NCBI GenBank assembly: GCA_934154805.1
Contig: CAKPGM010000009.1
Coordinates: 372-64,371 of the forward strand
Reading direction: 5' to 3'
DNA from: an uncultured Clostridia bacterium
Lineage (GTDB): Bacteria; Bacillota; Clostridia; TANB77; CAG-508
Length of the DNA stretch: 64,000 nucleotides
The position numbers and the translations under genes were made by a program. Of this stretch, positions 13,420-63,280 are shown one piece after another. Numbering within the stretch: position 1 is the first letter of the stretch; each line of letters opens with the position of its first letter. The notes beneath the pieces are model-generated. The model made no database searches. It was not told the origin of the DNA and saw nothing but the letters and a program-made list of their open reading frames with translations.

Positions 13420-13743
13420 TTATGCTACTTTTATTCCCGTATCTATAATCTCTTTTACAAAAGAACTGGAAACTTTTTTATATTCTTCTGTTTTTATTGG
13501 ATGCGGTTCAATTCTCGGATCAATATCCCAAGTCATTCCCATTAAATCTGCCATGCAATCAAATATATCATCAAAATCATCAGAAACAACTGCTATATCG
13601 ATATCACTATCTTCATTTTCTGTTCCCTTTGCATAAGATCCAAACAATATGATTTCTTTAACTTTATATTGTTTTTTTATCTCCTTCGAAAATCGATTTA
13701 TACTATCAATTATTTCTTTATTTATTGATTTTTTAACCATTCT
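13420..13743 (-). CDS. Minimal nucleotidyltransferase (MNT-like) domain protein
   Basis: GSYAKG-x9-DIDI motif; likely start MVKKSI at 13743, overlapping the HEPN gene stop by 22 nt. Confidence 0.75.
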   Translation of the reverse strand, partial: RMVKKSINKEIIDSINRFSKEIKKQYKVKEIILFGSYAKGTENEDSDIDIAVVSDDFDDIFDCMADLMGMTWDIDPRIEPHPIKTEEYKKVSSSFVKEIIDTGIKVA

Positions 13744-14093
13744 AGTACCTCCCCTATGTATTTTACTTGTTTTGATGTATAATCGTCTGTACATTTTTCA
13801 TCAAAACTTCTTTTATAATCATCATATCTAGCACTTATATTAAATGTATTTATGGTTTGTATCATGTTTCTTATTTTGATTGGCGGTTCTAATTTTGCCT
13901 TACGAGAAAGTATAATTAAGTTATGCATTTTAGGAGCTATTGGATTTTTCGGATTATTTTTTGCATATACTCCTTTCAATGTTTTTTCAATTACTAAATG
14001 TCCTATAAATAGGCACCATGTATTTTTCTTATTCTTGCATAATACCTTCATTGTTTCATAATCACTTTCAGCACTTTCAAACCAATATTTCAT
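13722..14093 (-). CDS. HEPN domain protein
   Basis: 123-aa helical protein, HEPN-like; translationally coupled to the NT-domain gene. Confidence 0.65.
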   Translation of the reverse strand: MKYWFESAESDYETMKVLCKNKKNTWCLFIGHLVIEKTLKGVYAKNNPKNPIAPKMHNLIILSRKAKLEPPIKIRNMIQTINTFNISARYDDYKRSFDEKCTDDYTSKQVKYIGEVLEWLKNQ

Positions 14094-18028: not shown

Positions 18029-18295
18029 ATGCCAAATATTAAATCTGCAATTAAACGTGTAAGCGTTATTGATAAGAAAACTGCTAGAAATAATATGATT
18101 AAATCTGGATATAAATCAGCTGTTAAGAAATTTGAACAAGCTGTTGAAGCTGGAAATGTTGAAGAAGCAAAGACATTATTCTCTGCTGCTACAAAGAAAA
18201 TAGATCAAGCTTGTACAAAAGGTGTTATCGTTAAGAACACAGCTGCTAGAAAAAAATCTTTATTAGCAAAAAAATTAAACGCTATGAATGCGTAA
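18029..18295 (+). CDS. rpsT: 30S ribosomal protein S20
   Basis: [10 protein letters not shown] start after GAGGAGG; typical S20 sequence. Confidence 0.95.
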
Positions 18296-21755: not shown

Positions 21756-22340
21756 TTATTTTTCTTGCCACTCTAGCATATTTTTTATCTCTTCTTTTAC
21801 CACTTTTTCATCTCTACAATTATCAAGTTTGACAACATTGATTTTTGGATACTTTTCAGCTATTTCGTCTGCCATTTTCAAATATGCATTTTGTTGATTT
21901 ATACTACTCTGTTTATTAAATTTTGCATAAGCATTTTTTGCTTTTCCCGCTCTATTTAATCTCTTCTCAAATTCGTTCTCATCACTTAAGTATAGCGTAA
22001 TATAATAAATTTCGAAGTCCATATTAGCAAGTCTATTTAATAATTTTTCATATATATCGCTAAAAGTATATTCTTTAAATCCCAATCTGCAATAAATTTC
22101 TTCTGTAAAAAATGTTCTATCAAACAATAAATTAATACTCATATTTTGTAATTTTTCGATATAATCTACTAAATCAATATACATTTTTTCTGATTTTGCT
22201 CTGCCTGTTGGTGTTGAATCTGCTGTTCCACTTAATCTATATAGATTTGTATATGGAATTGCGTGTCTTATATAATCTGTTATTGTAGTTTTTCCTGCTC
22301 CTTGAGCTCCCTCTACTATTATTATTTTAGAATTTGCCAT
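21756..22340 (-). CDS. P-loop NTPase/kinase (dNK/thymidylate-kinase-like) inserted in gatCAB
   Basis: 194 aa; Walker A GAQGAGKT at residues 11-18, LFDRTFF, lid-like RLNRAGKAKN; tightly packed between gatC and gatA. Confidence 0.6.
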   Translation of the reverse strand: MANSKIIIVEGAQGAGKTTITDYIRHAIPYTNLYRLSGTADSTPTGRAKSEKMYIDLVDYIEKLQNMSINLLFDRTFFTEEIYCRLGFKEYTFSDIYEKLLNRLANMDFEIYYITLYLSDENEFEKRLNRAGKAKNAYAKFNKQSSINQQNAYLKMADEIAEKYPKINVVKLDNCRDEKVVKEEIKNMLEWQEK

Positions 22341-22361: not shown

Positions 22362-22646
22362 TTACATTACCTTTGGTATTTTAAACATTCCTCTTTCTTG
22401 CTCTGGTGCATTTTGTAAAAGTCCATCGTGGTTTTCAAAAACTTTTACTTCGTCTTTTCTAAAGACATTGCATCTTTCATTTTCTCCAATAGTTTCCTCT
22501 AATCCATCTACTGGAGCTTTATTTACTACATCTGCAAAGTTTAAAATCTCTTGTAAGTTTTCTAAATATTTATCTACTTCATTTTCTTCTAATTTAAGAC
22601 TTGCAAGTTTTGCTATATGCAATAATTCCTCTTTACTAACTTTCAT
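22362..22646 (-). CDS. gatC: Asp/Glu-tRNA amidotransferase subunit C
   Basis: 94 aa; typical GatC (VSKEELLHIAKLASLKLEENE ... FKIPKV). Confidence 0.9.
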   Translation of the reverse strand: MKVSKEELLHIAKLASLKLEENEVDKYLENLQEILNFADVVNKAPVDGLEETIGENERCNVFRKDEVKVFENHDGLLQNAPEQERGMFKIPKVM

Positions 22647-22752
22647 TTCTATCAGTCCTTTCGCTCTTAAAGTCTATACTATTATATAATTTTTTTGTCA
22701 GATAAACAAGCAATTATAGGCAATTTCTCAATATTTTTTTAATTTTTTGCAT

Positions 22753-22791
22753 AAAAAATGACCGTCTTAATGTAACTAACATTAAAACGGC
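22753..22791 (-). terminator. Strand-specific intrinsic terminator inside the gatC upstream region
   Basis: 12-bp stem (22763-22774 / 22780-22791) that is perfect only in the minus-strand RNA (one G-U); followed by UUUUUU on minus. Confidence 0.65.
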
Positions 22792-22869
22792 GAAGTTTAA
22801 AAAAAAATTTATAGAAAAACATTATACAAGAATTGGTTGTTTCCAATTTTTTTATCTTGTACGAACTTA

Positions 22870-22899
22870 TTATAAAACAATTCGTTATAAAATGTCAAG
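22870..22899 (-). promoter_or_regulatory. Sigma-A type promoter driving a ~105-nt terminated transcript (sRNA or gatC leader)
   Basis: Minus strand TTGACA (22899-22894), 18 nt, TATAAT (22875-22870). Confidence 0.55.
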
Positions 22900-22968
22900 T
22901 ATTTTTTTAATTTTTTAATACATTTTCTAAAATGAAATACACTGGAATATTTTGTCGAACGTTTTTCC

Positions 22969-22997
22969 TTGATTTATTTTAAATTATATGTTATAAT
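22969..22997 (+). promoter_or_regulatory. Sigma-A type promoter of the large ncRNA
   Basis: TTGATT (22969-22974), 17 nt, TATAAT (22992-22997). Confidence 0.6.
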
Positions 22998-23003
22998 ACA
23001 ATT

Positions 23004-23530
23004 GATGGTGCATTATTCTAGTAATGCTTTCTATTATGAGGGTGGGGCTAAAAATCCACTAAAGGGCACATCGTTGAAGTTCCTTGTTTGTGCGCGAAAT
23101 GCCAGTTTTGTGTGTTTGCAGGGAGTAAGATTCTAGGGAAATGTGTAATGGCATACATATTCCAACCCTATTATCGCGGAGGCTTAAAAAAGAACTACAT
23201 TTTAAGTATAACCTATGTTTTTATACATAGCGTAGCCTGTCTTGAGTGACTGTATTGGGATTATAATTTATCTTTTATATGAAATTACTGTTGCAAAAGG
23301 GACTAATCTTAGAAAAGTATTCCAAGGAAAACTTCTAGAATGTTTGTTTCATTAGAAGCATAGAATTATAGGGATTAAGGTACGGATTTAAGTGGCAATC
23401 TGGCATTCCTGATAACCGGAATATTTGCTTTAAAAGGAAACTGCTTTATAGTAATGTAAAGTAGCAAATAGAGAAATTCGGCTAGACCTCAAACCGTAAA
23501 ATTTACTTATAATTTTACCATCTATATCAT
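23004..23530 (+). ncRNA. Large structured non-coding RNA, OLE-like (boundaries approximate)
   Basis: No ORF >=60 aa on either strand; local GC clearly above the flanks; many hairpins; own promoter; immediately upstream of an OapA-like 4-TM gene; no RNase P, tmRNA or SRP signature motifs. Confidence 0.6.
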
Positions 23531-23553
23531 TTTTTTAGAAAGATTAATAATTA

Positions 23554-24141
23554 ATGGATTCAGAAAACAAAGAAATAAATTCAAAAAAAACAAACAAAGA
23601 TGCCAAAAAGTCAGCTAACAACTCTAATGTAAAATGGATTGTTAGCGTTTTTGTTACGACATTTATATTGTCGATAACTTTTTCATTTATATCAACAAAT
23701 GCAATTAGCAATTTATCACTTTTCCCCGCAATTTTAATTTTATTGCTAGTAATTATAATAGGTATAGTATTTGATATTATTGCTGTTGCGGTTACTGTTG
23801 CTGACGAAGATGAATTTCACGCAAAAGCTAGTAAAAGAGTTACAGGTGCAAAAACATCAGTTAAACTTATTCGTAATTCAGCCAAAGTTGCTAACTTCGG
23901 TTCTGATATAGTCGGTGATATATGTGGAGTTTTAAGTGGTTCTATAAGTGCTTTAATTGCTTTAAAAATTGGTTCAATATATAACCTATCTGTAGATTTA
24001 CAATTTATTATAAGTGCTGTTGTTGCTGCTGTTACTGTTGGTGGAAAAGCTATTGGTAAGAATATTGCAACAGAAAACTCTACAAAAATTGTTCACGCAG
24101 TTGCAAATGTTTTGAATAAATTACATTTAAATAAAAAATAA
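23554..24141 (+). CDS. Four-TM membrane protein, OLE-associated protein A (OapA)-like
   Basis: 195 aa (~21 kDa); 4 predicted TM helices; DxxxD motif in TM3 (GSDIVGDICG); position directly after the large RNA. Confidence 0.55.
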   Translation: MDSENKEINSKKTNKDAKKSANNSNVKWIVSVFVTTFILSITFSFISTNAISNLSLFPAILILLLVIIIGIVFDIIAVAVTVADEDEFHAKASKRVTGAKTSVKLIRNSAKVANFGSDIVGDICGVLSGSISALIALKIGSIYNLSVDLQFIISAVVAAVTVGGKAIGKNIATENSTKIVHAVANVLNKLHLNKK

Positions 24142-24147
24142 AAATAT

Positions 24148-24189
24148 CAAGAGTAGGTTCAGTTCATTCTGTTCCTACTCTTGTTTTTT
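24148..24189. terminator. Bidirectional intrinsic terminator
   Basis: caagagtagg/cctactcttg 10-bp stem followed by T6; lies between convergent genes. Confidence 0.75.
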
Positions 24190-25030
24190 AATCTCTATAT
24201 TTAAAACTTCTATATTCTATTTTTAATATTATTTTCCATACCGGATTATTTAATGGATATGATCTATGTAGTCCTGCTAAGTTAAGCGTATTACTTCTAT
24301 TTATCTTGTTGTCTGTTAAGTTTTGTATGTATCCTTCTTTTCCCATTACATCAAGCTCTTCGCTTGTACATAACCCATATGGATAGGTAAATACTTTTAG
24401 CATATTCTCATCTTGTAAATTATTTTTCAAGTTTTCATATGCCTGATTAGTTTGTTTTACTAATTCTTCAGTTGTTACTTCATCATATTTACAATGTGTT
24501 AATCCGTGTGAATATATAGAAATTAGTCCACTATCATGCATTTCCTTTGCTTCTTCCCAAGTATAATATCCTGGTATTCCAACACAGTCATCTATTAAAA
24601 ACGATGTCATTGGTATATTATATTTTTTTGCTATTCTATATGCATTCTTATATATTCCTTCATAACCATCATCAAATGTGATTAGATAACTTCTTTTATA
24701 AATTGCTTTTTTACCTTCTTTGTAATCAACTAAATCTTGATAACTTATTGGTTTATACCCCAATTTTGTTAATCCTACAATCTGCTTCTCAAATGTTTCC
24801 GTTGTCGATTGCATATAGTCATATTCTATTTGGCTTTCATCATCAACAATGTCATGATATACAAATACTGGTATCTTTAGATTTTTTTCTCCGATATAGT
24901 AAGTTTTATTAACTGTAATGGCTTCATATACTATAAAGCTTATTATTAAAATTATTATTGCTATTAATATTGATAATAGAACTTTTTGAGTTCTATTCAT
25001 TTTTCTTGATTGTTCATTTGTCTTTTTCAT
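24188..25030 (-). CDS. Polysaccharide deacetylase (NodB homology), membrane anchored
   Basis: 280 aa; N-terminal TM; TFDDGYEG motif and downstream His motifs (YSHGLTH). Confidence 0.8.
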   Translation of the reverse strand: MKKTNEQSRKMNRTQKVLLSILIAIIILIISFIVYEAITVNKTYYIGEKNLKIPVFVYHDIVDDESQIEYDYMQSTTETFEKQIVGLTKLGYKPISYQDLVDYKEGKKAIYKRSYLITFDDGYEGIYKNAYRIAKKYNIPMTSFLIDDCVGIPGYYTWEEAKEMHDSGLISIYSHGLTHCKYDEVTTEELVKQTNQAYENLKNNLQDENMLKVFTYPYGLCTSEELDVMGKEGYIQNLTDNKINRSNTLNLAGLHRSYPLNNPVWKIILKIEYRSFKYRD

Positions 25031-47823: not shown

Positions 47824-47855
47824 AAAAAAACAAATAGCTAAATCGCTATTTGTTT
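47824..47855 (-). terminator. Intrinsic terminator ending the glycan operon
   Basis: caaatagc/gctatttg stem (47831-47838 / 47845-47852) overlapping the TAG stop, then U7 on the minus strand. Confidence 0.7.
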
Positions 47856-50293
47856 ATAAGTTGATTCACGTCACTTTCCAGTCTTTCTATTTCTTGCTTA
47901 ATTCCTTGTTGTTTGCTTATATGCAATCTTGATAATTCAAAATCTAACATATATGATTTCTTATTTTCAAACTCTTCTTGTGCTTCTTTATATATACTAA
48001 TCATTAATTCTTCGAATTCTTTATCTTGCATCTTTCTATTATAATTTTCTATCATCTTACCGAAGTTAATCATTTGATATATTCTATCTATTTGATATCT
48101 TGCATCAAATTTCCTTATTTCTTTTGTTTTGTAAAAATAGTTTTGTATCTCTCTTAAGCTGTTTATATCTTCGTGTTCATTCAAGCATGCACTCACATAA
48201 TCGCTTATATTGTAAGCTAAGAAATCATAGCCTGCAATGTAATATGCCTCTTTGTCAAATAGATACTTATAATTTTCAAGTTTAACCTTTCTATCACTTG
48301 TCTGTACTACAATATTTTCTCTAGTTTTTATATCATAAGGAAATATCTTAGCAACTTTTTCATATATTTTTACTCTTTCTTCTTTCCCTCTGTCTATAAT
48401 TGCTGTAGTATTTATTACATATATTCCATATACAAAATTATATAGAAACGCAACTAATGCAATTATATAAATTACACCGTTGATAATTTCATCTTTTATT
48501 TTTGTTTCTCTTTTTTCAGATTTATTTATACTAATAAAAGCTAGCAACAAGTATAAGACTAACATTACATATATAAATGCCATACTATAATCAAAGCAAG
48601 AATGGAATAACATACATCCAATTGCACACAGTATACTTATGCTTGAAATATCTTCATTTTTTATTGCAGTAATCATATTTTTTATCAATATGACTATAAT
48701 AGCAATGAATATTCCTAATCCAAGAACGCCAAACTCTAACCATATTTGTAAAGGATAATTATGCACATCTTTGCTCTTATATGCATAGCTTTGTACTTCA
48801 AGATACTTATATCTCCAACCATTTCCGCCAATTCCAAATATCCAGTTTCCATTTTCTTTCATAATCTTCAAAGCATCTTTATAGAAAGTTACTCTTTCCC
48901 AAGCATTTTTGCTCTTGGTTATTCCGCTACTAAATCTGTCCATCATACCCGTTGGTAGGTATTTATAATTTAATATTGCCTCTTGATCATTTAATAATAA
49001 TTTATTTATTTTAAAATATGACTCAGCACTAGGATTTCTAGATTCTATTTCTATACTAAAAGATGTTGTTGCTTTATCTGTTGTTATTTCAACCTCTTTT
49101 ATTCCAGAGAATTCTCCAAAGAATACATCTGTACCTTTGATGTAATCCATATATTTATCTCTTTCAACAATTACCATTTTATAATCGTCATCTTTTTTTG
49201 CATGCGATTCAATATCAAATTGCAATAAATACTTGTAGTCGCCTTGTACATTATATACATTTTTTTCTACCTTAGAGTATGATGATTTTGCATCAAACAC
49301 CACTAATGGTTTAGATATTTTTCTAACACTAAAGAAATATATGCCCACTAGTGCAATCAGTGTTGTTAAAACAATAATGCTTTTTTTGGCATTTATCTTT
49401 TTTATTTTTTCTATATTCTTTATAGCTATCTTGCATAATCCAGTAGTTATTATTGCATTTATTAATATTCCAATCCATATTTTATAATATTGTCCAGACA
49501 ATAATGTTTCACTGTATACTTTTGAATACACCATACCACATAGTATCATAATTATTGCAGTAACTATTAATTCTTGCTTTTGTTTTTTGTCTTTATTGAC
49601 TATGTAATAAAGTATTATTACCATTGCAAGTGTAACATACATTATTCTACTATATGTTAAAATTAATCCTAATATTAGTATTGATAATTCAACAAAATAA
49701 AATATTTTTAGTTTTTTGTTCTCTGTTTGAAGTAACTGTCCAAATGCTATAAATATTGTTCCACCAATTAGTGTTGCCAATGCATTTGGTGAATAGAATA
49801 TTGATTCTAATCTCGTCAATTCCGTATTATCATTTTCTAAAATATTGGCAGTCATTTTGTCAATGCCTATAAATATCAACATTATTGTTAATAAAATACT
49901 TACATTTATTAATACATTCTTAGTTTTAGGTTGTTCAATGCACAATTGTTTTATTATAATATAAAATTCTAACAACATAATATATTGATTAAATATAAAG
50001 ATTGAATCATCTATGCTAACAGCCCTTTGAAGTATAATTGGTACTGCCGAAGCTATAGTTAAACCTAATATACAAAAGTCTAGTTTATTAGTCAGTATTG
50101 CCTGTTTTTTTATAATTGATTTTATTATAATAATTATTCCTATTAAACAAATAGCAATATATTGATAAGCTAGTTCTATTGTTCCTTTTGGTGAATATTT
50201 TATTGTACATGCAGTATAAGTTAAAGTCACTATTATAAGAATTGTAAAAATATTCTCTTTTATTATTTTAAATAATCGTTTTATTTTACTCAT
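47846..50293 (-). CDS. Wzy_C-family (O-antigen ligase / O-oligosaccharyltransferase / polymerase family) membrane protein with extra domains
   Basis: 815 aa; >=10 TM; motif GIGGNGWRY...VHNYPLQIWLEFGVLGLG resembles the Wzy_C loop; ~170-aa soluble insertion and ~190-aa C-terminal helical domain. Confidence 0.6.
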   Translation of the reverse strand: MSKIKRLFKIIKENIFTILIIVTLTYTACTIKYSPKGTIELAYQYIAICLIGIIIIIKSIIKKQAILTNKLDFCILGLTIASAVPIILQRAVSIDDSIFIFNQYIMLLEFYIIIKQLCIEQPKTKNVLINVSILLTIMLIFIGIDKMTANILENDNTELTRLESIFYSPNALATLIGGTIFIAFGQLLQTENKKLKIFYFVELSILILGLILTYSRIMYVTLAMVIILYYIVNKDKKQKQELIVTAIIMILCGMVYSKVYSETLLSGQYYKIWIGILINAIITTGLCKIAIKNIEKIKKINAKKSIIVLTTLIALVGIYFFSVRKISKPLVVFDAKSSYSKVEKNVYNVQGDYKYLLQFDIESHAKKDDDYKMVIVERDKYMDYIKGTDVFFGEFSGIKEVEITTDKATTSFSIEIESRNPSAESYFKINKLLLNDQEAILNYKYLPTGMMDRFSSGITKSKNAWERVTFYKDALKIMKENGNWIFGIGGNGWRYKYLEVQSYAYKSKDVHNYPLQIWLEFGVLGLGIFIAIIVILIKNMITAIKNEDISSISILCAIGCMLFHSCFDYSMAFIYVMLVLYLLLAFISINKSEKRETKIKDEIINGVIYIIALVAFLYNFVYGIYVINTTAIIDRGKEERVKIYEKVAKIFPYDIKTRENIVVQTSDRKVKLENYKYLFDKEAYYIAGYDFLAYNISDYVSACLNEHEDINSLREIQNYFYKTKEIRKFDARYQIDRIYQMINFGKMIENYNRKMQDKEFEELMISIYKEAQEEFENKKSYMLDFELSRLHISKQQGIKQEIERLESDVNQLINK

Positions 50294-51935
50294 ATTTAAA
50301 TATTTCTCCGTCTTTTAAAATATATTTGTTCTCAAAGTTTTCTATATGTTTTAAGTTATGGGTAACAACTACTATAGTGTGTTCTGTTTTTAGTTTTTCT
50401 AGTAGTTCAAATATTGAATTTTCTATGTTTTCGTCTAATGCGTTCGTTGCCTCATCTAATAAGATAATTTTGCTTTCTCTTAGCAAAGCTCTTGCAATAG
50501 CAAATCTTTGTCTTTGCCCTCCACTCAAGTTTACACCATTTTCTCCTATTAGTGTTTCGTATTTTTCTGGCAAAGACTGTATGTATTTATCCAACTCCAC
50601 TTTTTTGCAAACTTCTTGCAATTCATCTTCTCTAGCATTTGGTTTAGCAAGTAATAAGTTATCTTTTATGCTCATATTAAATATATAAAAATCTTGAGAA
50701 ATCATTGAAATATTTTTTCTTAAATATTTCTCAGATAAGTCTTTTATATCCTTATCATCTATTTTTATTTTTCCTTCATTTGCCACATAAGTTCTTGCAA
50801 TTAAATTTAGAATTGTTGTCTTTCCGCTACCATTCTCTCCAATAATAGCTACTTTTTCGTTTGGCATGATAGAAAATGTACAATTATTTAGAATATATTT
50901 GTCATCATATTTGAATTTTACATTTTCAAAATCTATTTTACCTAAACATTCGCAATTACAATCTTCTTCCTCATTATTTTCTTCTTTATACATATCTATA
51001 ATATCAAATATTCTATTGCTAGATAGATTAAATCTTGCAATCATATCCAATAAGTCTGTGAAGTTGTCAACAAAGCTAAATAAGTTTACTCTGTACATAA
51101 ATATAGTAACAAATTGCTCAACACTCATAATATTTTTTTGTATCAAGTATATACTTAAAAATATTACAATAGCATTGGCTGCCCATTCTATTATTACTGT
51201 TAATTTCATATACAAATTGAATATAAAATCTGCTTTATATTGATAATTTTCTATGTTTTTAAAAGATTCCTGAGTTTTGTCAGAAAATTGTTTCTTGACA
51301 TTTAGTAATTTTATTTCTTTTATTCCATTAAGAATCTCATTCCATAAGCTAGTACTCTTCTCTTCTTCTTTTAAATATTGGCTCTTATATTTTCTTTTTG
51401 TGTTGACTCCCTTTTTTCTAATGTACAAACTCAATATAAATGATACTAAATATATTGTTCCTAATATAGGATTTAGGTATATAACATATATTATGACTCC
51501 AATGTTTGTAAATAATAGCAACATGTTTTGCTTTATTCCATTAAATAGGTCTGTAATAATATCTGGATCTTTATTTATTCTTTGTATAAATTTTCCTTTT
51601 TGTTCTTTATCAAAAGATTGGATTTCTAGATGAAAAATGCTTTTAGCTAAACTGCTCTTTATTTTCACTATAAAATCTTTTCTTAGGTCATAAAATGCTC
51701 TAGTACTTAATATCGTACTCAATAATTTTATTGATTGTAATACTGCCAGTATTACAATGTTTATAATAACTGCTTTATATTCAGCTTTTAGCATTGATGT
51801 TATTATATTAGCTATCAGCGCTGGTGTAAAAATAGAAATTATTATTGTCAAAGCACTAATTATGCTAATTTCATATATATTTTTTTTCTTAGCCATTTTG
51901 GCATATCTTTTTAGATATCTATAAAACTCTTTCAT
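50286..51935 (-). CDS. ABC exporter, fused permease/ATPase (MsbA/PglK-like half transporter)
   Basis: 549 aa; 6 TM; Walker A GENGSGKTT, signature LSGGQRQR, Walker B ILLDEAT. Confidence 0.85.
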   Translation of the reverse strand: MKEFYRYLKRYAKMAKKKNIYEISIISALTIIISIFTPALIANIITSMLKAEYKAVIINIVILAVLQSIKLLSTILSTRAFYDLRKDFIVKIKSSLAKSIFHLEIQSFDKEQKGKFIQRINKDPDIITDLFNGIKQNMLLLFTNIGVIIYVIYLNPILGTIYLVSFILSLYIRKKGVNTKRKYKSQYLKEEEKSTSLWNEILNGIKEIKLLNVKKQFSDKTQESFKNIENYQYKADFIFNLYMKLTVIIEWAANAIVIFLSIYLIQKNIMSVEQFVTIFMYRVNLFSFVDNFTDLLDMIARFNLSSNRIFDIIDMYKEENNEEEDCNCECLGKIDFENVKFKYDDKYILNNCTFSIMPNEKVAIIGENGSGKTTILNLIARTYVANEGKIKIDDKDIKDLSEKYLRKNISMISQDFYIFNMSIKDNLLLAKPNAREDELQEVCKKVELDKYIQSLPEKYETLIGENGVNLSGGQRQRFAIARALLRESKIILLDEATNALDENIENSIFELLEKLKTEHTIVVVTHNLKHIENFENKYILKDGEIFKYE

Positions 51936-51945
51936 TAGCGCTCCT

Positions 51946-52779
51946 TTACTTTATAATACTTCTTACTTTTCTTTTAAAACATATCCATATACATTTAAAA
52001 AGTGTTTTTGCTCCTATTTTTCCTCTCATGGTATAGCTAAATAACATTTCATCTATATTATCTATATCATACCAGATAAATGCTTTTTGTAAAATATCGA
52101 TTATAGCTTCTGCGTTATCAATTGTATCCACTTTAAAGTTAATCCCCATATCTACAGAATTTAAAAAGGAATTTTGTCCTGTTATGCCTATATGTTGTAC
52201 ATAACTGTTTTTTGTGCAAAAGATCCTAGCTCCCTCTTTAGTCAGCATATTGCAATAAAAATTATCAAAAGAAATCAACCCTGAATATTCTTTGTTAATA
52301 AATTTTTCTACCGCTTCTTTTGAAATAACAGTACCAGCAGAACCAATGTCTTTTTTTATTTCAAATCTTTCACTATATTCTTCTATTGCTTTATGAGTAT
52401 GAGCATTAAATAAAGAGAAAATTACTGTTTCATTTTTTTCTTCTAGTTCTTTTATTCCATTTTCAATATGCTTTAAGATGTCTGTATTAAATATCAAATC
52501 AGAATCAGCTACAAACAAATACTCATTATCACTATTAGCAAAATCTTTGAACATTTTTTGTGTATTATAATCAGCTCCCAGATTATCCTTATTTATAGTT
52601 ATTTTGTCCGCCATAGGATATTTTTCATTTAAATATTTTCTATCGTATTCTGTGCTGCAATCATCAAAAATTCTTACACAGGTATTTTGTATTCCTTCAA
52701 CCTCTCCTAATGAGCGTGATGTATATTCTATTAATTTTTTTCTATTATACGTGCATATGCCTATCATTAATTTTTTCAT
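51946..52779 (-). CDS. Glycosyltransferase family 2-like
   Basis: 277 aa; IGICTYNRK N-terminus, FDDCS and VADSD acidic motifs. Confidence 0.65.
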   Translation of the reverse strand: MKKLMIGICTYNRKKLIEYTSRSLGEVEGIQNTCVRIFDDCSTEYDRKYLNEKYPMADKITINKDNLGADYNTQKMFKDFANSDNEYLFVADSDLIFNTDILKHIENGIKELEEKNETVIFSLFNAHTHKAIEEYSERFEIKKDIGSAGTVISKEAVEKFINKEYSGLISFDNFYCNMLTKEGARIFCTKNSYVQHIGITGQNSFLNSVDMGINFKVDTIDNAEAIIDILQKAFIWYDIDNIDEMLFSYTMRGKIGAKTLFKCIWICFKRKVRSIIK

Positions 52780-52782
52780 TTT

Positions 52783-53670
52783 CTATATCCATTCCTCTAT
52801 CTTTTTCTGAGAAATTCCCCATTTTTTCATCTCTCTTCTATCTACATTACAATATCTGCAAAAAGGTGCTGGTTTAGCCAAGAAATTCAATATTTCTTCT
52901 TTGTTCTGAACTTTATATATGTCAATTCCATCATTCTCACAAACATGCAAATCACATTTAAAGTGATTTATAAAATGTTGTATATGTGGGATAGTAGAGC
53001 AGGTATACAATTTTCCATGTTTTAAAGTATGGCATGAATTAGCCAGATAACACTTCAAAAAGCTCTTTTCTGGTTGTTGTCTTCCCTCTATATCCAAAGG
53101 TAGGTGATTAAATGTTTCTACCGGTTGTTCACAGAAAAATCTAAACTGTACTCTTTCTTTATGACACTTCTCTTTAATTTTTTCTACATCTAAATTTATT
53201 GGATATCTTGTCACTGTTAAGTTTATATTATTCTCTCTTAGAGCTCTCCAAAATGGTTCTTTCATACTTAAAATCAATATTCCATTTGTATCAATGTCTA
53301 TAAGGGTGTTCGGAAAATATTTTCTTGTTATATCACAAAACTTAGCAATATCTGGATGTAATAATGGTTCTCCTCCCATAAGTCTAATAAAATTTGCTTC
53401 TTTATTAAACAATTCAGATAATCGTTTGCAATCTTTCTCATATTCATTTATATCTAAAAAACCTTCTTCTGCAATAGGACAAAAGTGAGAACAATATTTG
53501 CAATTCAAATTACAGTGTTCTACTAATTGTACTTCATAATCCAACATTGCTTTTGGTGTTTTTCGCACTTCCATTTCAACAATTTTTTCAACAGTTAAAT
53601 TACTTAAATCTTCCCCCTTTTTATAAGTAGCAGGAACTATTTTTTTCATAAATTTCTTAAATTTGTTCAT
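52783..53670 (-). CDS. Radical SAM enzyme
   Basis: 295 aa; CNLNCKYC (CxxxCxxC), GGEPLL; additional C-terminal Cys (C..C, CRYC). Confidence 0.8.
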   Translation of the reverse strand: MNKFKKFMKKIVPATYKKGEDLSNLTVEKIVEMEVRKTPKAMLDYEVQLVEHCNLNCKYCSHFCPIAEEGFLDINEYEKDCKRLSELFNKEANFIRLMGGEPLLHPDIAKFCDITRKYFPNTLIDIDTNGILILSMKEPFWRALRENNINLTVTRYPINLDVEKIKEKCHKERVQFRFFCEQPVETFNHLPLDIEGRQQPEKSFLKCYLANSCHTLKHGKLYTCSTIPHIQHFINHFKCDLHVCENDGIDIYKVQNKEEILNFLAKPAPFCRYCNVDRREMKKWGISQKKIEEWI

Positions 53671-53672
53671 TA

Positions 53673-54653
53673 TTAATCACTTTCCTTTTTATTCTTTCTC
53701 TTTCCATATACTTTAAATAAAAACCAATATTTCATCTGACAACCAAATATATGAAATATTTTTCTAAGTCCTGCTTTTCCTTCTCTTGCTATATCAATAC
53801 ACACTTCGTCCACAGGTGACGTTCTTAGTACTTCGTATGGGTCTTTTGTATATTCATCTATCAGTTGATTATAGTAAGCAGTTTTTTTAGCATATTGCCA
53901 AAAATATTTGTTATATTTAGAGTAGATATTCCTATATGGTTTTGTTACATATGTAAAATGTATGATTATAGGCTGTTCTACAAATAAGTCTTTATATTTC
54001 TTTTTACGAATTTTAGTCTTAAATTTATCATAAGAAGCCAAATTTGTTTGATAATTATACATCGGTTTCAACACTTTCATATTATCCTTGCACACAATAT
54101 TTAGTGCTGTTTGGTCTGGAAATCTGTAATTAGTATTTTTCTTCAAGACATCTAAGCATTTCTCTCTGATTTTTTGTTTTTTAAATTCTTTTGTATTAAA
54201 TACCAATACTCCTGAATTAAGATTTGTATAGATTTCATTTGTATAATACGTAAAGTCCATTATCATTGCTATAGGCTTGTTTTCTAAGTCCTCATTGTAT
54301 AGTTTTTCTATATCATCAATTACAATTGTATCACAATCTAGGTAAATTATTTTATCATACTTTAATATTAGTGGAGCATAATATCTATAATACATTTCTA
54401 TCGGATATTCTGATGTTGCATATAAAATATCATAATCCAAATATTCACTAACATCCATACATCTCACAGAAACATTGTCTTTAGATAACGCTTCCAAATT
54501 TAATATATCTTCTTTTTTTAGCCTCGTATGAAATACATAAATTTCGTATAAATTTTTATCTGATGCATTTTCAACTATTGATGATATTGCTACACTACAT
54601 AATGGTACATAATTTGAATCACACGAAAAGACTATTGGTATCTTTTTTTGCAT
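53673..54653 (-). CDS. Glycosyltransferase family 8
   Basis: 326 aa; IPIVFSCDSNY start, DxD in YLDCDTIV, NSGVLVFN. Confidence 0.8.
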   Translation of the reverse strand: MQKKIPIVFSCDSNYVPLCSVAISSIVENASDKNLYEIYVFHTRLKKEDILNLEALSKDNVSVRCMDVSEYLDYDILYATSEYPIEMYYRYYAPLILKYDKIIYLDCDTIVIDDIEKLYNEDLENKPIAMIMDFTYYTNEIYTNLNSGVLVFNTKEFKKQKIREKCLDVLKKNTNYRFPDQTALNIVCKDNMKVLKPMYNYQTNLASYDKFKTKIRKKKYKDLFVEQPIIIHFTYVTKPYRNIYSKYNKYFWQYAKKTAYYNQLIDEYTKDPYEVLRTSPVDEVCIDIAREGKAGLRKIFHIFGCQMKYWFLFKVYGKRKNKKESD

Positions 54654-55528
54654 ATTCTTCTCCTTATCTTAAACACTTTATAATATAAATTGGGAAATAT
54701 ATAAAAGCACATATATTTCATATTTCCATTATTTTTTAATTCTTTTCTAAATTCTGTTACTATTTCTTTTTTAGTAATATTGTTATCTTTAAATTGGCAA
54801 TATAAATATATATAATAATTCATATACAATTTGTAAAATATTTCTTTATATTTTGTATTCTCAAAAAATACATATCTATCTTTAAATACATTTAATATTT
54901 CTTGGTAGTAATTTAATCTTTTTGACGTTATTCCATTTGGATTATCACAATAGTTGTATGTTTTTTTACTAACAAAAGTTATTTTATTTGTTCTTTCCAA
55001 TATATGATAAATCATATACTCATCCTCTGCAATATGCACATCGGGATATTTCAATCCATCGAACAATTCTTTTTTCATAAGTTTGTTCCATTGCACCATA
55101 AAGTATTTTATTTTTTGATTAAAGATGTACTCATATTTATCATCTTTTATTGTTATATCCTTTGCACTAGAGTCTTCTATATTCCCTATCACCATATCAC
55201 TATTTGTTTCAATTAATTTATTATACAGTATCTCTATTGCATCTTCTTCCAAATAATCATCAGCATCAACAAAAAACAAATATTTAGTATTACATTTTTC
55301 TAATCCTAAATTTCTTGCACTGGCAACTCCTTCATTCTGTTTTTTATAAATTTGCACCCTGTCTTTATATTTTTCCAGTACCTCATCTGTTTTATCCGTG
55401 CTTCCATCGTTAATTACAATAACATCTAAGTTCTGATAACTTTGATTCAACACACTTTTTAGGCACTTTTCTATCGAATCTTCATTGTTGCATGTAGGAA
55501 TTATCACAGAAATCCTTTCTTTGTTCAT
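54632..55528 (-). CDS. Glycosyltransferase family 2
   Basis: ISVIIPTCNNEDSI, NDGSTD, FVDADD. Confidence 0.85.
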   Translation of the reverse strand: MNKERISVIIPTCNNEDSIEKCLKSVLNQSYQNLDVIVINDGSTDKTDEVLEKYKDRVQIYKKQNEGVASARNLGLEKCNTKYLFFVDADDYLEEDAIEILYNKLIETNSDMVIGNIEDSSAKDITIKDDKYEYIFNQKIKYFMVQWNKLMKKELFDGLKYPDVHIAEDEYMIYHILERTNKITFVSKKTYNYCDNPNGITSKRLNYYQEILNVFKDRYVFFENTKYKEIFYKLYMNYYIYLYCQFKDNNITKKEIVTEFRKELKNNGNMKYMCFYIFPNLYYKVFKIRRRICKKRYQ

Positions 55529-56472
55529 ATAACATTTCCTCTCTTTAATATTATAAAATCAGAAACTATATTAGGCATTATAGAAAAACAAAAATACTTT
55601 ATTTTTCTTTTAATATTTAGTTTAAAATCTATGTTATTGTATTCTTGTTCAAATATATTCTTCAAGTACTCTTGCTCTTCTTTTTGTTTGTTGATTTTGC
55701 ATAAACTGTACAAAAGTAGAATCATATCTATTTTAGCCATTCTGTTTTTTATTATAAGTTCTTTATCTTGAGGAAAATACTTTTCTCTTTCATCAAATAC
55801 CTCTAATAATTCTAGTTTCTTTTTGTTAAATGTTCTTTGTCTGCTATTTTTGTGTATTCTATAAAAATAGAGCTTTTGGTTGCTTACAACTATTTTATTT
55901 TTCGCTTCAAATATTAGTTTATGTACTATGAATTCGTCTTCATTTTCACGTTCTGTATCAAATCTTATCTTTTCAAATATTTCTTTTTTGTACAACTTAT
56001 TTGTTATTATTACTGTTCTAACCCCGTTTTTGCTATATAACCTAGACATCATCTGCCTTGGAGTAACTACTTCTTCTTGATCATCTATATTCTTTATTCG
56101 CTTAGCATTCATATATTGAATATCAGCTTCAACAATGTCTGCATTATATTTATTTTGTAATAATATTAGCATCTGCAAATAATTTTTATCTACTTCATCA
56201 TCAGAATCTATGAAACAAATAAAATCTCCTGTCGCTACATTAATTCCTTGATTTCTAGCATTACTTACACCTTCGTGCTCTAATTCTAATATTTTAATTC
56301 TATCATCTTCTTGTTGATATTTTTTGCATATTGATACAGACTCATCTTTACTTCCATCACTAACTATTATTAGCTCAAAATTTCTGTATGTCTGAGATAA
56401 TATTGATTCTATACATTGTTTTAAATATTTTTCCGAATTATAAATTGGTACAATTACTGATATTTTTTCCAA
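55525..56472 (-). CDS. Glycosyltransferase family 2
   Basis: ISVIVPIYNSEKYL, SDGSKD, FIDSDD. Confidence 0.85.
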   Translation of the reverse strand: MEKISVIVPIYNSEKYLKQCIESILSQTYRNFELIIVSDGSKDESVSICKKYQQEDDRIKILELEHEGVSNARNQGINVATGDFICFIDSDDEVDKNYLQMLILLQNKYNADIVEADIQYMNAKRIKNIDDQEEVVTPRQMMSRLYSKNGVRTVIITNKLYKKEIFEKIRFDTERENEDEFIVHKLIFEAKNKIVVSNQKLYFYRIHKNSRQRTFNKKKLELLEVFDEREKYFPQDKELIIKNRMAKIDMILLLYSLCKINKQKEEQEYLKNIFEQEYNNIDFKLNIKRKIKYFCFSIMPNIVSDFIILKRGNVI

Positions 56473-56486
56473 ATTTTATCCTCCGA

Positions 56487-57404
56487 CTATCTTTTAAAAA
56501 GTTTATATAATATTTTATACATTGTGAAATCTGATATAAACAAATATAACTGCCACTTCTTCCATACAGTATATTTTGATTTTTTTATGCTTTCTACGTT
56601 ATTCTGCACTTGTTCTTTTACCTTTGACAATAATTCATTATTATATGAATCATTTAATATCATACTATTTGCAATAGCTATTGAATTAAATAACGAATAC
56701 GTTATATAATCATCAATCAACTCTGGGAATTTCTGTTTTACTAGCTCTCTATTTCCTAAGCAAGCTTTCATTCTGTCATCATTTTTAAAATATTTAGATC
56801 TACTGTCTTCTCTTTGTGTGTAATTGTATAATATTTTTTCTAGATAAACAACTTTATCAGCATTAGCAAAGGCTTCTACTGCAAATTTAATATCTTCAAA
56901 ATGATTAGATTTATCAAACCACAAATCTTTAAGCTTTTCTTTTCTAAAAATTTTACCCACTACAGACATTGGAATTTTCTCTGGCAATGCTATTAGGTAT
57001 TTAAAAGCTTCTGTCTTGTCTAATTCATATAGTTTTCCTGTATTATTTTTGTATGAACAAGCTACTATTGAAGCCTCTTTTTGTCTAATTAAGTTGATCA
57101 TTGTTTCCAAAAAATTTAGCTCTATTGTATCATCACTATCAACAAAGCAAATAAAATCACCAGTAGCTTCTTTTAGTCCCCTGTTTCGTGCTTGTCCAGT
57201 TCCTTGGTTTTCTTGGGTAAATACTTTTATTCTTTTATCTGAACATTTTTGTATTTTTTCCAATGTTTTATCTGTGCTTCCATCATTTATAACAATTAGT
57301 TCTAAATTATCATATGTCTGATTCAATACAGAATTAATACTTTTCTCAATCCTTTTTTCATCATTAAACACTGGTATAATTACACTTATTTTCTCCATAA
57401 TCAC
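56487..57404 (-). CDS. Glycosyltransferase family 2
   Basis: ISVIIPVFNDEKRI, NDGSTD, FVDSDD. Confidence 0.85.
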   Translation of the reverse strand: MIMEKISVIIPVFNDEKRIEKSINSVLNQTYDNLELIVINDGSTDKTLEKIQKCSDKRIKVFTQENQGTGQARNRGLKEATGDFICFVDSDDTIELNFLETMINLIRQKEASIVACSYKNNTGKLYELDKTEAFKYLIALPEKIPMSVVGKIFRKEKLKDLWFDKSNHFEDIKFAVEAFANADKVVYLEKILYNYTQREDSRSKYFKNDDRMKACLGNRELVKQKFPELIDDYITYSLFNSIAIANSMILNDSYNNELLSKVKEQVQNNVESIKKSKYTVWKKWQLYLFISDFTMYKILYKLFKR

Positions 57405-58459
57405 TCCATATATATTGATTCCATTTGTTTTATATATTGATTATTCTCCTCGATGTCGTATGCAACCCTTTGGTAATTCAGTTCTTTATTTATTTTGTTG
57501 GCCCATTTATAAGGGGTATCATTTAACTTCATTTTTACAATATTTTTATCATTAAAGTTATGTGATACTTTTGTTGGAACAAAACACTTCAATGATGAGA
57601 TTAAGGCTTCATAAATAGTCAATCCATATCCCTCGTATTTCGAAGTAGACACATAGCAGTCAAACATCTGGTACATATTCTCTATATGTTTTTCCTTCCC
57701 TAACATAATTACATCATTAGTTAGTTTTTCTTGTTCTATCAATTTACAAATGTTCTTTTGTTCATTTCCTGTCCCAATTAAAAACAATTTCGAATTTGGT
57801 CTCAATCTCTTAAATTCAGCAAAAACTCTTATTAGGAATTGTTGATTTTTTTGTTTTGTTAATCTTCCTATATTGCCAATTACAATCTCATCTTCACTAA
57901 TGTTGTATTTTTTTCTTGTTTCTATTCTCTTCTCCTCATTATATATAAATCTTTTGCGGTCAATTTCACTTTTTACAATTTCATACTTCACACCATTTTT
58001 AAAGCAAAACTTTGCTGTTTCTTTAGAAGATGCTATATATCTATATTTTTTACTACTAAATATACATCTAAATATGCTAGCTATAATTGTTTTCATTTTT
58101 AAAATGTCATTATCAAAACTTGAATTATGTGCATATACTACAACTTTGTTAGATTTACGTTTAACTAACAAAGCATAAAAAAGTCCAATTGGACTATGTA
58201 TGTTTATATTTATAATATCAGCGTTTTTAGTATATCTTCTGATATTAAAACTGGTTTTTATAAATCTGTATATTGGATTTTTGTATTTTTTATTTGATAT
58301 ACTTTGTACTTTATCATTGTACAATTGAGAATTGTTTATTGTGCACAATATCTCTGTAGAGAATTTGTCTTTGTCGATATTTCTTTTTATGTATGTTGAT
58401 ATTTTCTCAATACCACCATTTCCAAAATAATCACAAAAAATTATTAGCTTTTTACTCAT
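57401..58459 (-). CDS. Glycosyltransferase family 4 (GT-B)
   Basis: 352 aa; C-terminal SKYEGYGLTIYEAL (E-x7-E-like). Confidence 0.75.
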   Translation of the reverse strand: MSKKLIIFCDYFGNGGIEKISTYIKRNIDKDKFSTEILCTINNSQLYNDKVQSISNKKYKNPIYRFIKTSFNIRRYTKNADIININIHSPIGLFYALLVKRKSNKVVVYAHNSSFDNDILKMKTIIASIFRCIFSSKKYRYIASSKETAKFCFKNGVKYEIVKSEIDRKRFIYNEEKRIETRKKYNISEDEIVIGNIGRLTKQKNQQFLIRVFAEFKRLRPNSKLFLIGTGNEQKNICKLIEQEKLTNDVIMLGKEKHIENMYQMFDCYVSTSKYEGYGLTIYEALISSLKCFVPTKVSHNFNDKNIVKMKLNDTPYKWANKINKELNYQRVAYDIEENNQYIKQMESIYME

Positions 58460-59247
58460 ATTTTTATCCGTTCTAAGTATTTATTTTTTACTTCATCAAT
58501 ATTGATATTCTTTCTATCATAGTATTTTTTTATATTAGCGATTTCTTCGCTTATTGCACATAATATAGATAATATGAATCCATTATATCCGCCTTTATAA
58601 TTTTTCTCTTTAAAGTAAAATTTATTAAAATTGCCAATAAAGCATAATAATGGCGATTTGAATTTTTTGTTATTAATTTCTAAATCTATATATCTTGCTC
58701 TCTTTTTCATCCATTGGTCTATGTTATCAAATGAAAAGTGTAACAACGCATACTCTTCTCCTTGAAGCCATAGCTCCTTGGAATCTTTTTTTACTTCTAA
58801 ATAATGGTGTACAATTCCAGTGACTATTATGTTTTGTTTTCTAAATAATCTACAATGATGGCAAGGATAATGCAATCCATATTTTGCCTTTTCTCCAAAG
58901 AAATAATTTATGGTTGGAAAATAGACAACATCGTATTTGTTTTCTTTTACTATGCTATCTATTTTTTCTGCCATTGTTTTCGAAATCATTTCATCTGCAT
59001 CGAACAATAAACACCATTCATTCTTTGCATTTTCTATAATTACACTTCGTGCACTATCAAAGTTCTTACAATATGGTATTTCTAATATTTTTGCTCCATA
59101 TTTCTTAGCTATATTTATAGTATTATCATTGCTATGCATATCTGCTATTAAAATCTCATCACAGTTTTTAAATGATTTAAGTGATTTTAACGCATATTCT
59201 AACTTTTCTTCTTCATTATAAACATTCATTATTACCGAAAACTTCAT
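58456..59247 (-). CDS. Glycosyltransferase family 2-like
   Basis: 263 aa; FSVIMNVYNEE, LLFDADE. Confidence 0.7.
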   Translation of the reverse strand: MKFSVIMNVYNEEEKLEYALKSLKSFKNCDEILIADMHSNDNTINIAKKYGAKILEIPYCKNFDSARSVIIENAKNEWCLLFDADEMISKTMAEKIDSIVKENKYDVVYFPTINYFFGEKAKYGLHYPCHHCRLFRKQNIIVTGIVHHYLEVKKDSKELWLQGEEYALLHFSFDNIDQWMKKRARYIDLEINNKKFKSPLLCFIGNFNKFYFKEKNYKGGYNGFILSILCAISEEIANIKKYYDRKNINIDEVKNKYLERIKI

Positions 59248-60370
59248 TATCTTCTAATACCTCTTTATATAGTTTTGCTACTTTTTTCACAACTCTATCA
59301 GAACTATAATCTTCTATATCAATTGATTGATTATATTGTTCCTGTATGTTTTTATAATTATCTTTAACATATTTTATTTTATCATATATTTCATCTACAC
59401 TATTTACAATAAATCCATTTTTACCTTCAGTTATTAAATCCCTATTTCCTCTACAATTCGTTGCTACTACAATTTTTTTCTTATAGATTGCTTCTAATAT
59501 ATTTAGTGGTAGCCCTTCTTGTCTACTCGCAGAAATCACTATATCAGATGCATCTAAGAATTTATTAATTTGCTTTGTAAATTTTATAGTTTTTATACAT
59601 TTATCTAGCTTTTTCTTTTTGATTTCTTCTTGCACTTTTCCTTTTAGTATATCATCACCAATTAAAAGTACTTTTATATTTTGGTTTCTTATATCTGTTT
59701 TTGCTAGTTCTTTTATTAATTGAATTTGTCTTTTTCTTTTAGAATATTCTGCAATATACGAAACTATAAAATCTCCCTCTTGTAATCCATACTCTTTATT
59801 TAGCTCATCTAATTCACTCTTGGTAGTAGATGTTTGTAGTCTTTCTTTATTAAAGCCTGCACCATTTATATATTTTACATTAACATTCTTAAAGTGTTTC
59901 TTAGCAAAGTTATAATCTTCTGAATTCATTACTAATAAAAAGTCTGTGTATTTCATCAAATACTTTTCTATTGGATAAAATATCATCCAATAATACAATG
60001 GACATCCTTTATAGAAGTGAAAACCATGACAAGTATATATTACCTTCGCTTTTGTTTTAGCAAATTTACAAGCAAGCCTTGTAATTACAGATCCAACTGG
60101 TGTATGTGTGTGTATCAAGTCATAGTCGTTTTTCTTTAGGTTTTCTGTTAGTTTCTTTATTGCCTTAATGTTTTTTATACTAAATGGTTTTCTAGTTATA
60201 TCTAGATTTATCTTTTGGCATCTATTTATTTGCATATCTGTATTTGTAGCAACAGACACATCACAATTGTTATCTTCAAACCATTTTATATATGGCATAT
60301 GGCACAACATAATATGTCTGTCTGTATTAGCAGTTATTAAAATTTTTTTCCTCTTATTTTTCTCGTTCAT
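59216..60370 (-). CDS. Glycosyltransferase family 4 (GT-B)
   Basis: 384 aa; SRQEGLPLNILEAIY motif; first gene after the promoter. Confidence 0.75.
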   Translation of the reverse strand: MNEKNKRKKILITANTDRHIMLCHMPYIKWFEDNNCDVSVATNTDMQINRCQKINLDITRKPFSIKNIKAIKKLTENLKKNDYDLIHTHTPVGSVITRLACKFAKTKAKVIYTCHGFHFYKGCPLYYWMIFYPIEKYLMKYTDFLLVMNSEDYNFAKKHFKNVNVKYINGAGFNKERLQTSTTKSELDELNKEYGLQEGDFIVSYIAEYSKRKRQIQLIKELAKTDIRNQNIKVLLIGDDILKGKVQEEIKKKKLDKCIKTIKFTKQINKFLDASDIVISASRQEGLPLNILEAIYKKKIVVATNCRGNRDLITEGKNGFIVNSVDEIYDKIKYVKDNYKNIQEQYNQSIDIEDYSSDRVVKKVAKLYKEVLEDNEVFGNNECL

Positions 60371-61852: not shown

Positions 61853-61879
61853 TCTCTTTTGCTCCTTTACTTTAATAAT

Positions 61880-63253: not shown

Positions 63254-63280
63254 TTTCTTTTGCTCCTTTACTTTAATAAT

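Follow-up and report, generated by a model that had tools for sequence, protein, structure and literature searches.

The question raised by the stretch of DNA analysed here (64,000 nt from an uncultured Clostridia bacterium, assembly GCA_934154805.1, contig CAKPGM010000009.1; hereafter "the window") is whether a long gap between gatC and an open reading frame (ORF) for a small membrane protein holds an OLE (ornate, large, extremophilic) RNA followed by the gene of its protein partner OapA, as had been proposed in a preliminary description made from the sequence alone, and, if so, in what form. OLE RNAs are among the largest conserved bacterial RNAs with an unsolved biochemical job, so any copy merits correct annotation. 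With a probability of about 0.93 we assign the locus to a two-gene ole-oapA unit, composed of a reduced "variant 1" OLE RNA and its OapA partner. The locus is real, the preliminary identification was right and the OLE copy is shortened but intact; it is no new type of element, the reduced form having already been published from uncultured gut Clostridia. A near-identical genome (locus L001 below; 96-100% protein identity over 20 kb) belongs to the public species set already surveyed for OLE.

Identification of the RNA and of its protein partner

The gap extends over 907 nt, from the start of gatC on the minus strand (22646) to the start of the ORF at 23554. Its core contains no ORF of 60 aa or more (the longest have 55 and 53 aa) and is rich in G+C (46.7% at 23041-23100 and 40.0% at 23101-23160, compared with 20.8% at 22700-22988 and 28.7% in the whole window), just as described earlier. 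A search with the Rfam covariance models, which the preliminary description had proposed as a check, confidently identified RF01071 (OLE) on the plus strand at 22989-23537 (score: 342.9 bits; E-value 4.4e-97; gathering score: 50). The match is untruncated (model positions 1-616), 202 of the 245 highly conserved (upper-case) positions of the RF01071 consensus are identical in the window, and OLE is the sole Rfam family detected across the 64 kb. The fallback of an unclassified large RNA is not applicable. The spacing of 24 nt between the RNA and the next gene was a loose estimate: the start codon lies 16 nt past the end of the Rfam match and 31 nt past the end of helix P1.

For the comparison with related loci, one genome per GTDB species was scanned with the downstream protein, which yielded 80 loci from uncultured gut Clostridia, including the assemblies "Clostridium sp. 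CAG:780", "CAG:245" and "CAG:440" as well as one record that appears to be mislabelled (see the end of the text). An OLE gene was found by nhmmer directly upstream of oapA, on the same strand, in 77 of them, and the other three end at contig edges. The structural alignment comprises 72 full-length OLEs, with about 230 invariant columns. The secondary structure tested is that of the Rfam model and was not built from the 72 sequences; as a control, the pairing partners were slid by 1-3 columns. Projected on the window, the RF01071 structure keeps 128 pairs, 117 of them canonical. In the 72 loci, 91.7% of the cells are paired (35-50% when slid), 64 pairs exhibit compensatory changes on both sides (17-36 when slid), and the covariation score is 0.271 (at most 0.077 when slid), so that the covariation check likewise supports the fold. 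The long-range helices P1, P2, P3 and P3.1, which are omitted from the Rfam structure line and were counted over 71 distinct sequences, are paired in 95.7% of the cells (32-47% when slid), and the pairing of the two P1 strands places the ends of the functional RNA at ~23004 and ~23522. Two of the local hairpins pointed out previously, 23213-23230 and 23441-23464, correspond to the conserved OLE helices P8 and P14.1 (the latter with the GUAA loop), whereas those at 23010-27 and 23332-58 are rejected as conserved features, because their bases form the long-range helices P2 and P3.

The promoter reported ahead of the RNA (TTGATT-17-TATAAT) is present, but the match alone proves nothing, as the AT-rich region contains no excess of promoter-like sites (11 found, 13.4 expected from shuffles). 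What supports it is conservation: a TTG-type -35 element and a (TG)nTATAAT -10 element occur at a fixed distance from the invariant GAUGGUGCA at the start of P1 in 72/72 loci, with T4 and A5 invariant and T6-T9 at least 90% conserved. The start of transcription is predicted at ~23003-23005. At the other end of the unit the strong terminator noted before was confirmed (hairpin 24148-24183 followed by U6: -20.2 kcal/mol, z = -8.6, 0/200 shuffles as stable), although a simple scanner missed it, owing to its inner loop. No terminator-like site was found on the plus strand between the OLE RNA and oapA, from which we infer that the two are co-transcribed.

The downstream protein, previously taken for OapA, is identified as such by its comparison with the OapA sequence of PMC12286853 (Suppl. 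Table 4), with 42% identity over 172 residues (E-value 9e-33). Its length of 195 aa, the DIVGD motif at residues 118-122 and the four transmembrane (TM) helices are as stated in the preliminary description, the hydropathy analysis delimiting hydrophobic segments at ~28-50, 56-82, 112-140 and 146-170. D74, D118 and D122 are invariant in 26 homologues, the latter two constituting the DxxxD motif that is the distinctive feature of OapA (PMC11332333 section 9). Lys and Arg residues number 7 in the N-terminus, 6 in the loop 83-110, 4 in the C-terminus and 0 in the two short loops, in line with the cluster of positive charges that OapA carries on its cytoplasmic face. The AlphaFold2 model is all-helical (predicted local distance difference test score: 73.7), and its only coherent matches in the PDB are MtCorB (7M1T, 7M1U) and the transmembrane domain of TpCorC (7CFF, 7CFG), with TM-scores of 0.47-0.54 normalised on the query and 0.60 on TpCorC; 7M1U is also the published top structural match of OapA from H. 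halodurans (PMC11332333 section 9). The Pfam CNNM family (PF01595) matches below the threshold (19.6 bits, cut-off 28.4), as has likewise been published for OapA, and no CBS, CorC or other domain was detected. The NCBIfam library contains no OapA model, and the matches of the protein there are noise only. On the strength of the model, a CNNM/CorB-like fold is predicted for the window OapA.

The reduced form of the RNA

Fernando & Breaker (2024; PMC11332333 section 5) described variant 1 OLE RNAs, found most often in the uncultured gut order TANB77: their P7, P8 and P9 are shorter, the OapB site at the end of P13 is frequently missing, and the hosts for the most part lack OapB and OapC. The published scores of this variant are 310-390 bits. 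The deletions of the window OLE relative to RF01071 fall precisely in P7, P8 and P9: the P8 segment comprises 17 nt versus 31 in relatives, and the distal segment of P9 16 nt versus ~50. P13 is devoid of both the GNRA tetraloop and the one-base bulge that OapB requires (PMC7936274), in keeping with the reported lack of OapB and OapC in such organisms; its tip varies within the 12-member subclade defined below. The host clade is a lineage of uncultured, low-GC gut Clostridia, for which an anaerobic lifestyle is inferred from the habitat, and a syntenic relative of the window, L007, is CAG:245; CAG-245 is a genus of TANB77 (PMC11680825). Based on the shortening of P7, P8 and P9, the reduction of P13 and the TANB77-type host, we assign the window OLE to variant 1, from which it differs in nothing essential: oapA follows directly, as it does there, and 342.9 bits lie inside the published band. 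The full set of reductions is limited, among the 72 loci sampled, to a subclade of 12 members, i.e. the window and 11 relatives (L001-L008, L010, L017 and L030).

One detail of the subclade concerns the arm of P9. The distal part of ~50 nt with a GGCC palindrome and the P8 apex GUGCCAAGACAC are retained by 60 of the 72 aligned OLEs; within the subclade the palindromic loop is found in 0/12 sequences and the P8 apical motif in 1/12 (L003). The GGCC loop corresponds to the L9.3 kissing loop, which forms bridge B3, known from cryo-EM structures as the "fourth dimerisation centre" (PMC12286853; PMC12265935 section 4). The remaining contacts seen in these structures are the A-rich loop of P4, which makes the A-A contact of bridge B1 (PMC12286853, PMC12265935), and the kissing loops of P5.1 and P6.1 (PMC12265935 section 4). 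Their loops L4, L5.1 and L6.1 are intact in the window, with GCCA of L5.1 complementary to UGGC of L6.1; if the window OLE dimerises, it must, by analogy, rely on three of the four known contact points. The 2025 review states that P7 and P8 are not dimer contacts and does not comment on the loss of the P9 loop.

Compared with the full-length OLEs (H. halodurans, and the cryo-EM structures from C. acetobutylicum and C. botulinum), the window RNA exhibits the same P1-P15 architecture, invariant blocks and OapA partner, and shares with them the A-rich L4, the complementary L5.1 and L6.1, the CUAG palindromes, the GA-rich k-turn strands and the GNRA loop of P14.1. It differs in its length (~519 versus ~577-610 nt), in the absence of the distal P9 arch with its kissing loop, of the P8 apex and of both P13 elements (tetraloop and bulge), in the short P7, and in being preceded by its own promoter instead of lying inside a long polycistronic cluster of isoprenoid and DNA-repair genes. 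Variant 2 of the RF39 clade is also a reduced OLE of uncultured gut bacteria with small genomes, but it lacks P7 and P8 entirely (235-310 bits), whereas the window keeps short hairpins at both positions.

The 12-member subclade provides an indication of whether such an RNA is still maintained. Its OLE columns average 90% identity (OapA: 70-96%), pairing is kept in 90.3% of the cells (39-48% when slid), and 17 pairs are compensatory (1-3 when slid), while the spacer between gatC and OLE can be aligned solely to the same-species locus L001. Because of the column identity, the unalignable neighbouring spacer and the compensatory pairs, we conclude that the subclade without the P9 kissing loop stays under structural selection and is not decaying. 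We tentatively propose, at somewhat less than even odds, that its ~519-nt RNA is a working natural "minimal" OLE that does without the P9 arch and kissing loop, the P8 apex and the OapB site and tolerates mismatches in P3.1. If so, the P9 contact and OapB would be dispensable for the core function, and the small RNA with its 195-aa partner would make a convenient pair for structural and reconstitution work. Natural deletions under structural selection would mark the dispensable parts of OLE (the distal P9 with its kissing loop, the tip of P8 and the OapB site), as opposed to those that seem to admit no change (the L4, L5.1 and L6.1 loops, the CUAG palindromes, P1-P3, P14.1 and the DxxxD motif of OapA). 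The order TANB77 has recently been linked to the response to cancer immunotherapy, and a stress-response particle specific to bacteria of this type may be of secondary interest.

Other changes of length were seen elsewhere in the sample. The OLE gene of L043 (9214-9588) has just 375 nt (183 bits) and lacks the stretch equal to ~23100-23277 of the window (from the distal P5 to the 5' half of P9), yet it is followed by an intact oapA; either a natural deletion of a drastic kind or a fault in the assembly could account for this. The OLE RNAs of L041 (7728-8477) and L044 (9126-9876) are extended to ~750 nt by a palindromic insertion of ~110 nt in the distal P9 stem, just past the GGCC loop (columns 411-515 of the alignment), which resembles a small mobile repeat.

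Table 1. Coordinates (window numbering) of the ole-oapA unit, of the helices of the OLE RNA and of the convergent gene
Feature	Position	Strand	Details
Sigma-70-type promoter of the OLE-oapA unit	22969-22997	+	10/12 consensus matches
-35 element	22969-74	+	TTGATT; followed by a 17-nt spacer
TG of the extended -10	22989-90	+	end of the spacer
-10 element	22992-97	+	TATAAT
OLE RNA, reduced "variant 1"	23004-23522	+	~519 nt, from 5' P1 strand to 3' P1 strand; Rfam match 22989-23537
P1	23004-09 with 23517-22	+	GAUGGU; 100% paired in 71 distinct sequences
P2	23015-21 with 23335-41	+	AUUCUAG; 99.4% paired in 71 sequences; holds a CUAG palindrome
P3	23023-27 with 23317-21	+	AAUGC; 89% paired in 71 distinct sequences
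P3.1	23031-37 with 23306-12	+	CUAUUAU; 93% paired in 71 sequences; compensatory changes at all 7 pairs
P4 hairpin	23041-23060	+	A-rich loop GCUAAAAA, invariant in 72/72
P5/P5.1 hairpin	23080-23125	+	loop GCCA 23101-04, invariant
P6/P6.1	23129-23175	+	loop AUGGCA 23148-53; GGCA invariant
P7, shortened	23183-23206	+	
P8, shortened	23213-23230	+	
P9, shortened	23239-23303	+	tip: 5-bp stem with UUUAUCUU loop; without distal arm and palindromic GGCC kissing loop
3' domain, P10-P15 region	23362-23516	+	
P12.2	23399-404 / 23481-86	+	
P13, reduced	23406-23421	+	UUCCUG/CCGGAA, 6 pairs, loop AUAA; without GNRA tetraloop and bulge
P14/P14.1	23422-23470	+	GUAA tetraloop invariant
oapA	23554-24141	+	195 aa, four TM helices, DIVGD (residues 118-122) in TM3, K/R-rich loop 83-110
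Intrinsic terminator	24148-24189	both	10-bp outer stem, U6, U-rich also on the other strand; serves oapA (+) and the deacetylase gene (-)
Polysaccharide deacetylase gene	24188-25030	-	convergent to oapA

Proposed working and alternative explanations

The sequences show a conserved housekeeping-type promoter with a predicted start at ~23004; a covarying fold of the family's architecture, in which P1 and P2 close the molecule, P3/P3.1 lead into the 5' domain (P4-P9) and the 3' domain holds P10-P15; the oapA gene 31 nt further on, with no terminator-like site in between; and the terminator 24148-24189. By analogy with the OLE systems studied in other species, two OLE RNAs would dimerise through the loops of P4 (A-rich) and of P5.1 and P6.1 (complementary to each other), and dimers of OapA would bind near the CUAG palindromes, placed at the OapA sites by the 2025 review, and tether the RNA to or through the membrane, P3.1 having been proposed in the literature as an aid to spanning it. 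The particle may help the cell to cope with alcohol, cold, excess Mg2+ and poor carbon sources, probably via control of a CNNM-like divalent-cation transport activity of OapA.

Several points weigh against the assignment of the locus to a variant 1 OLE-OapA unit. The published score bands of the variants refer to the authors' own model and the score of the window to the Rfam model; moreover, of the 14 relatives scanned with the latter, 13 score 288-351 bits (the truncated L043 scores 183 bits), and those with a full P9 fall in the same range, so that the assignment rests on the structural description and not on the score. We therefore rejected the published bands as a means of separating the subgroups and used the stem lengths and motifs. 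In 11 of the 12 subclade members P3.1 contains a U-U and a U-C mismatch. A search for OapC gave no similar sequence in the window or in any of the 80 loci, no search was made for OapB, and a 64-kb window cannot establish the genome-wide absence of either protein. Finally, that the RNA is produced, where it ends, that it dimerises, that it binds OapA and that it sits at the membrane is in each case transferred from work on H. halodurans and two Clostridium species.

The structured region could act mainly in cis, as a very long riboswitch-like 5' leader of oapA and not as a separate stable RNA. The arrangement would permit this: the RNA and oapA are on the same strand behind a single conserved promoter, no terminator-like site precedes oapA, and just 31 nt separate P1 from the start codon. 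We nevertheless consider it improbable, because OLE of H. halodurans is abundant, binds OapA and needs OapA to reach the membrane (PMC12265935), while in the window the fold ends with P1 at 23004/23522, so that the ribosome-binding region lies beyond it, and shows neither the switching terminator nor the sequestering helices of riboswitches; in many related loci, furthermore, OLE and oapA are up to a few hundred nt apart and the pairing is kept. The two roles are not mutually exclusive. Still less credit is due to the notion that the RNA is a relic undergoing decay in a genome of reduced size, the absence of the P9 arm, of the P8 tip and of the P13 loop signifying lost function. Deletions in P7, P8, P9 and P13 and the two mismatches of P3.1 are what such a relic would display, and reduced genomes without OapB and OapC have been reported for the hosts (PMC11332333), but 12 species-level relatives whose OapA proteins are merely 70-96% identical keep the RNA at ~90% column identity, with the compensatory pairs mentioned above, an intact promoter and oapA, and invariant P4, P5.1 and P6.1 loops, next to a spacer that is unalignable beyond one species.

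The least credible alternative, which we regard as next to impossible, makes the protein an ordinary truncated Mg2+ transporter of the CNNM/MpfA type that is located beside OLE by chance. The weak Pfam match to CNNM and the CorB/CorC transmembrane domains as best structural matches point in this direction, and the transmembrane-domain fold (as predicted for OapA) is indeed common to the CNNM/MpfA/CorB/CorC transporters (PF01595; 7M1T, 7M1U, 7CFF), for which a shared origin and an overlapping function with OapA have been proposed (PMC11332333 section 9). The window protein, however, has neither the CBS pair nor the CorC domain of these transporters, comprises four instead of three TM helices and carries the DxxxD motif that is absent from CNNM domains (PMC11332333 section 9); its identity to published OapA and the RNA partner located directly upstream in every locus not cut by a contig end are equally at odds with a chance association. 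The identification as an ole-oapA unit is hence preferred to all three alternatives.

Genomic context

The unit had been called atypical and stand-alone. It does have its own promoter and terminator, and none of the classical neighbours of OLE (ispA, dxs, xseAB, nusB, recN, argR) was found in the Pfam annotation of the 64 kb; on the other hand, the gatCAB-OLE-oapA-deacetylase order is common to the nearest relatives, the promoter is conserved throughout the aligned loci, and neighbourhoods without isoprenoid genes are the rule in the gut clade. The context is therefore typical of the lineage, not an oddity of the window genome, and represents one of several arrangements in the clade. The commonest one in more distant TANB77 loci comprises an HD-domain (dGTPase-like) phosphohydrolase on the opposite strand, a Tmk or P-loop protein, OLE, oapA, a short-chain dehydrogenase and DinB; the dehydrogenase after oapA recalls the association with dltE known from the literature. 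In the window the unit is preceded by clpC-mcsB-mcsA-ctsR, plsX, hsp33, rsmB/F, enolase, a nucleotidyltransferase/HEPN pair, a SpaA pilin with a sortase, HPF, gatB, gatA, a P-loop protein and gatC. It is followed by the deacetylase, a DUF4190 protein, a beta-propeller protein, an acyl-CoA ligase, mreB, lexA, obg and a class I (Trp/Tyr-type) tRNA synthetase; further along come L27/L21, RNase G, pth, era, recO, ybeY, yqfD and a glycosyltransferase cluster. The minus strand carries almost all genes, and OLE-oapA is one of about five units on the plus strand (with plsX, a 150-aa ORF at 18288, era and recO), i.e. it is transcribed against the prevailing direction.

The gene between gatC and gatA (21756-22340, minus strand) encodes a 194-aa P-loop protein, of which the N-terminus alone weakly resembles dTMP/deoxynucleoside kinases. 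In L005, L006, L010 and L017 a true thymidylate kinase occupies its slot, and a Tmk or P-loop gene is located directly upstream of OLE, on the same strand, in ~33 more distant TANB77 loci. The idea that the window protein is a diverged thymidylate kinase has no support beyond the P-loop, the only part that aligns to the Tmk of the sister loci, and no relative was found in the PDB. The recurrence of a Tmk or P-loop gene beside OLE could reflect a functional link not covered in the published surveys, which excluded variant OLEs.

In the spacer between gatC and OLE, a T-box or other known leader was considered and rejected: a permissive Rfam search of 22600-23000 returned only a chance-level match to YenS (17.9 bits versus 80). 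On the minus strand, the segment 22751-22898 contains a perfect TTGACA-18-TATAAT promoter facing away from OLE, followed ~70 nt past the predicted start by a 13-bp hairpin with a U-run (22791-22751), with gatC ~105 nt further and a second promoter-like site past the hairpin. The region has no Rfam match and is conserved in L001 only; its role could be that of an attenuator for the gatC operon or of a small RNA of ~110 nt.

No homologue of bS21 (RpsU) was found in the window. Among the remaining loci, 13420-14093 (minus strand) harbours overlapping genes for a nucleotidyltransferase (PF01909) and a HEPN protein (PF05168), the usual two-gene pair resembling toxin-antitoxin systems. The segment 14200-17101 (minus strand), partly conserved in L004, codes for a surface protein of 797 aa, which combines a thioester domain with three SpaA-type domains, and next to it for a sortase, and is a sortase-assembled pilin or adhesin locus. 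A run of surface-polysaccharide genes at 47846-60370 (minus strand) comprises a Wzy-like protein, an ABC exporter, eight glycosyltransferases and a radical-SAM enzyme, and is followed by three large ORFs without a Pfam match (60542-63973). Although the record of L001 (CAVFFR010000014.1) bears the title "Bacteroidaceae bacterium", its proteins share 90-100% identity with those of the Clostridia-type window over ~20 kb, and the bin is probably mislabelled or contaminated.

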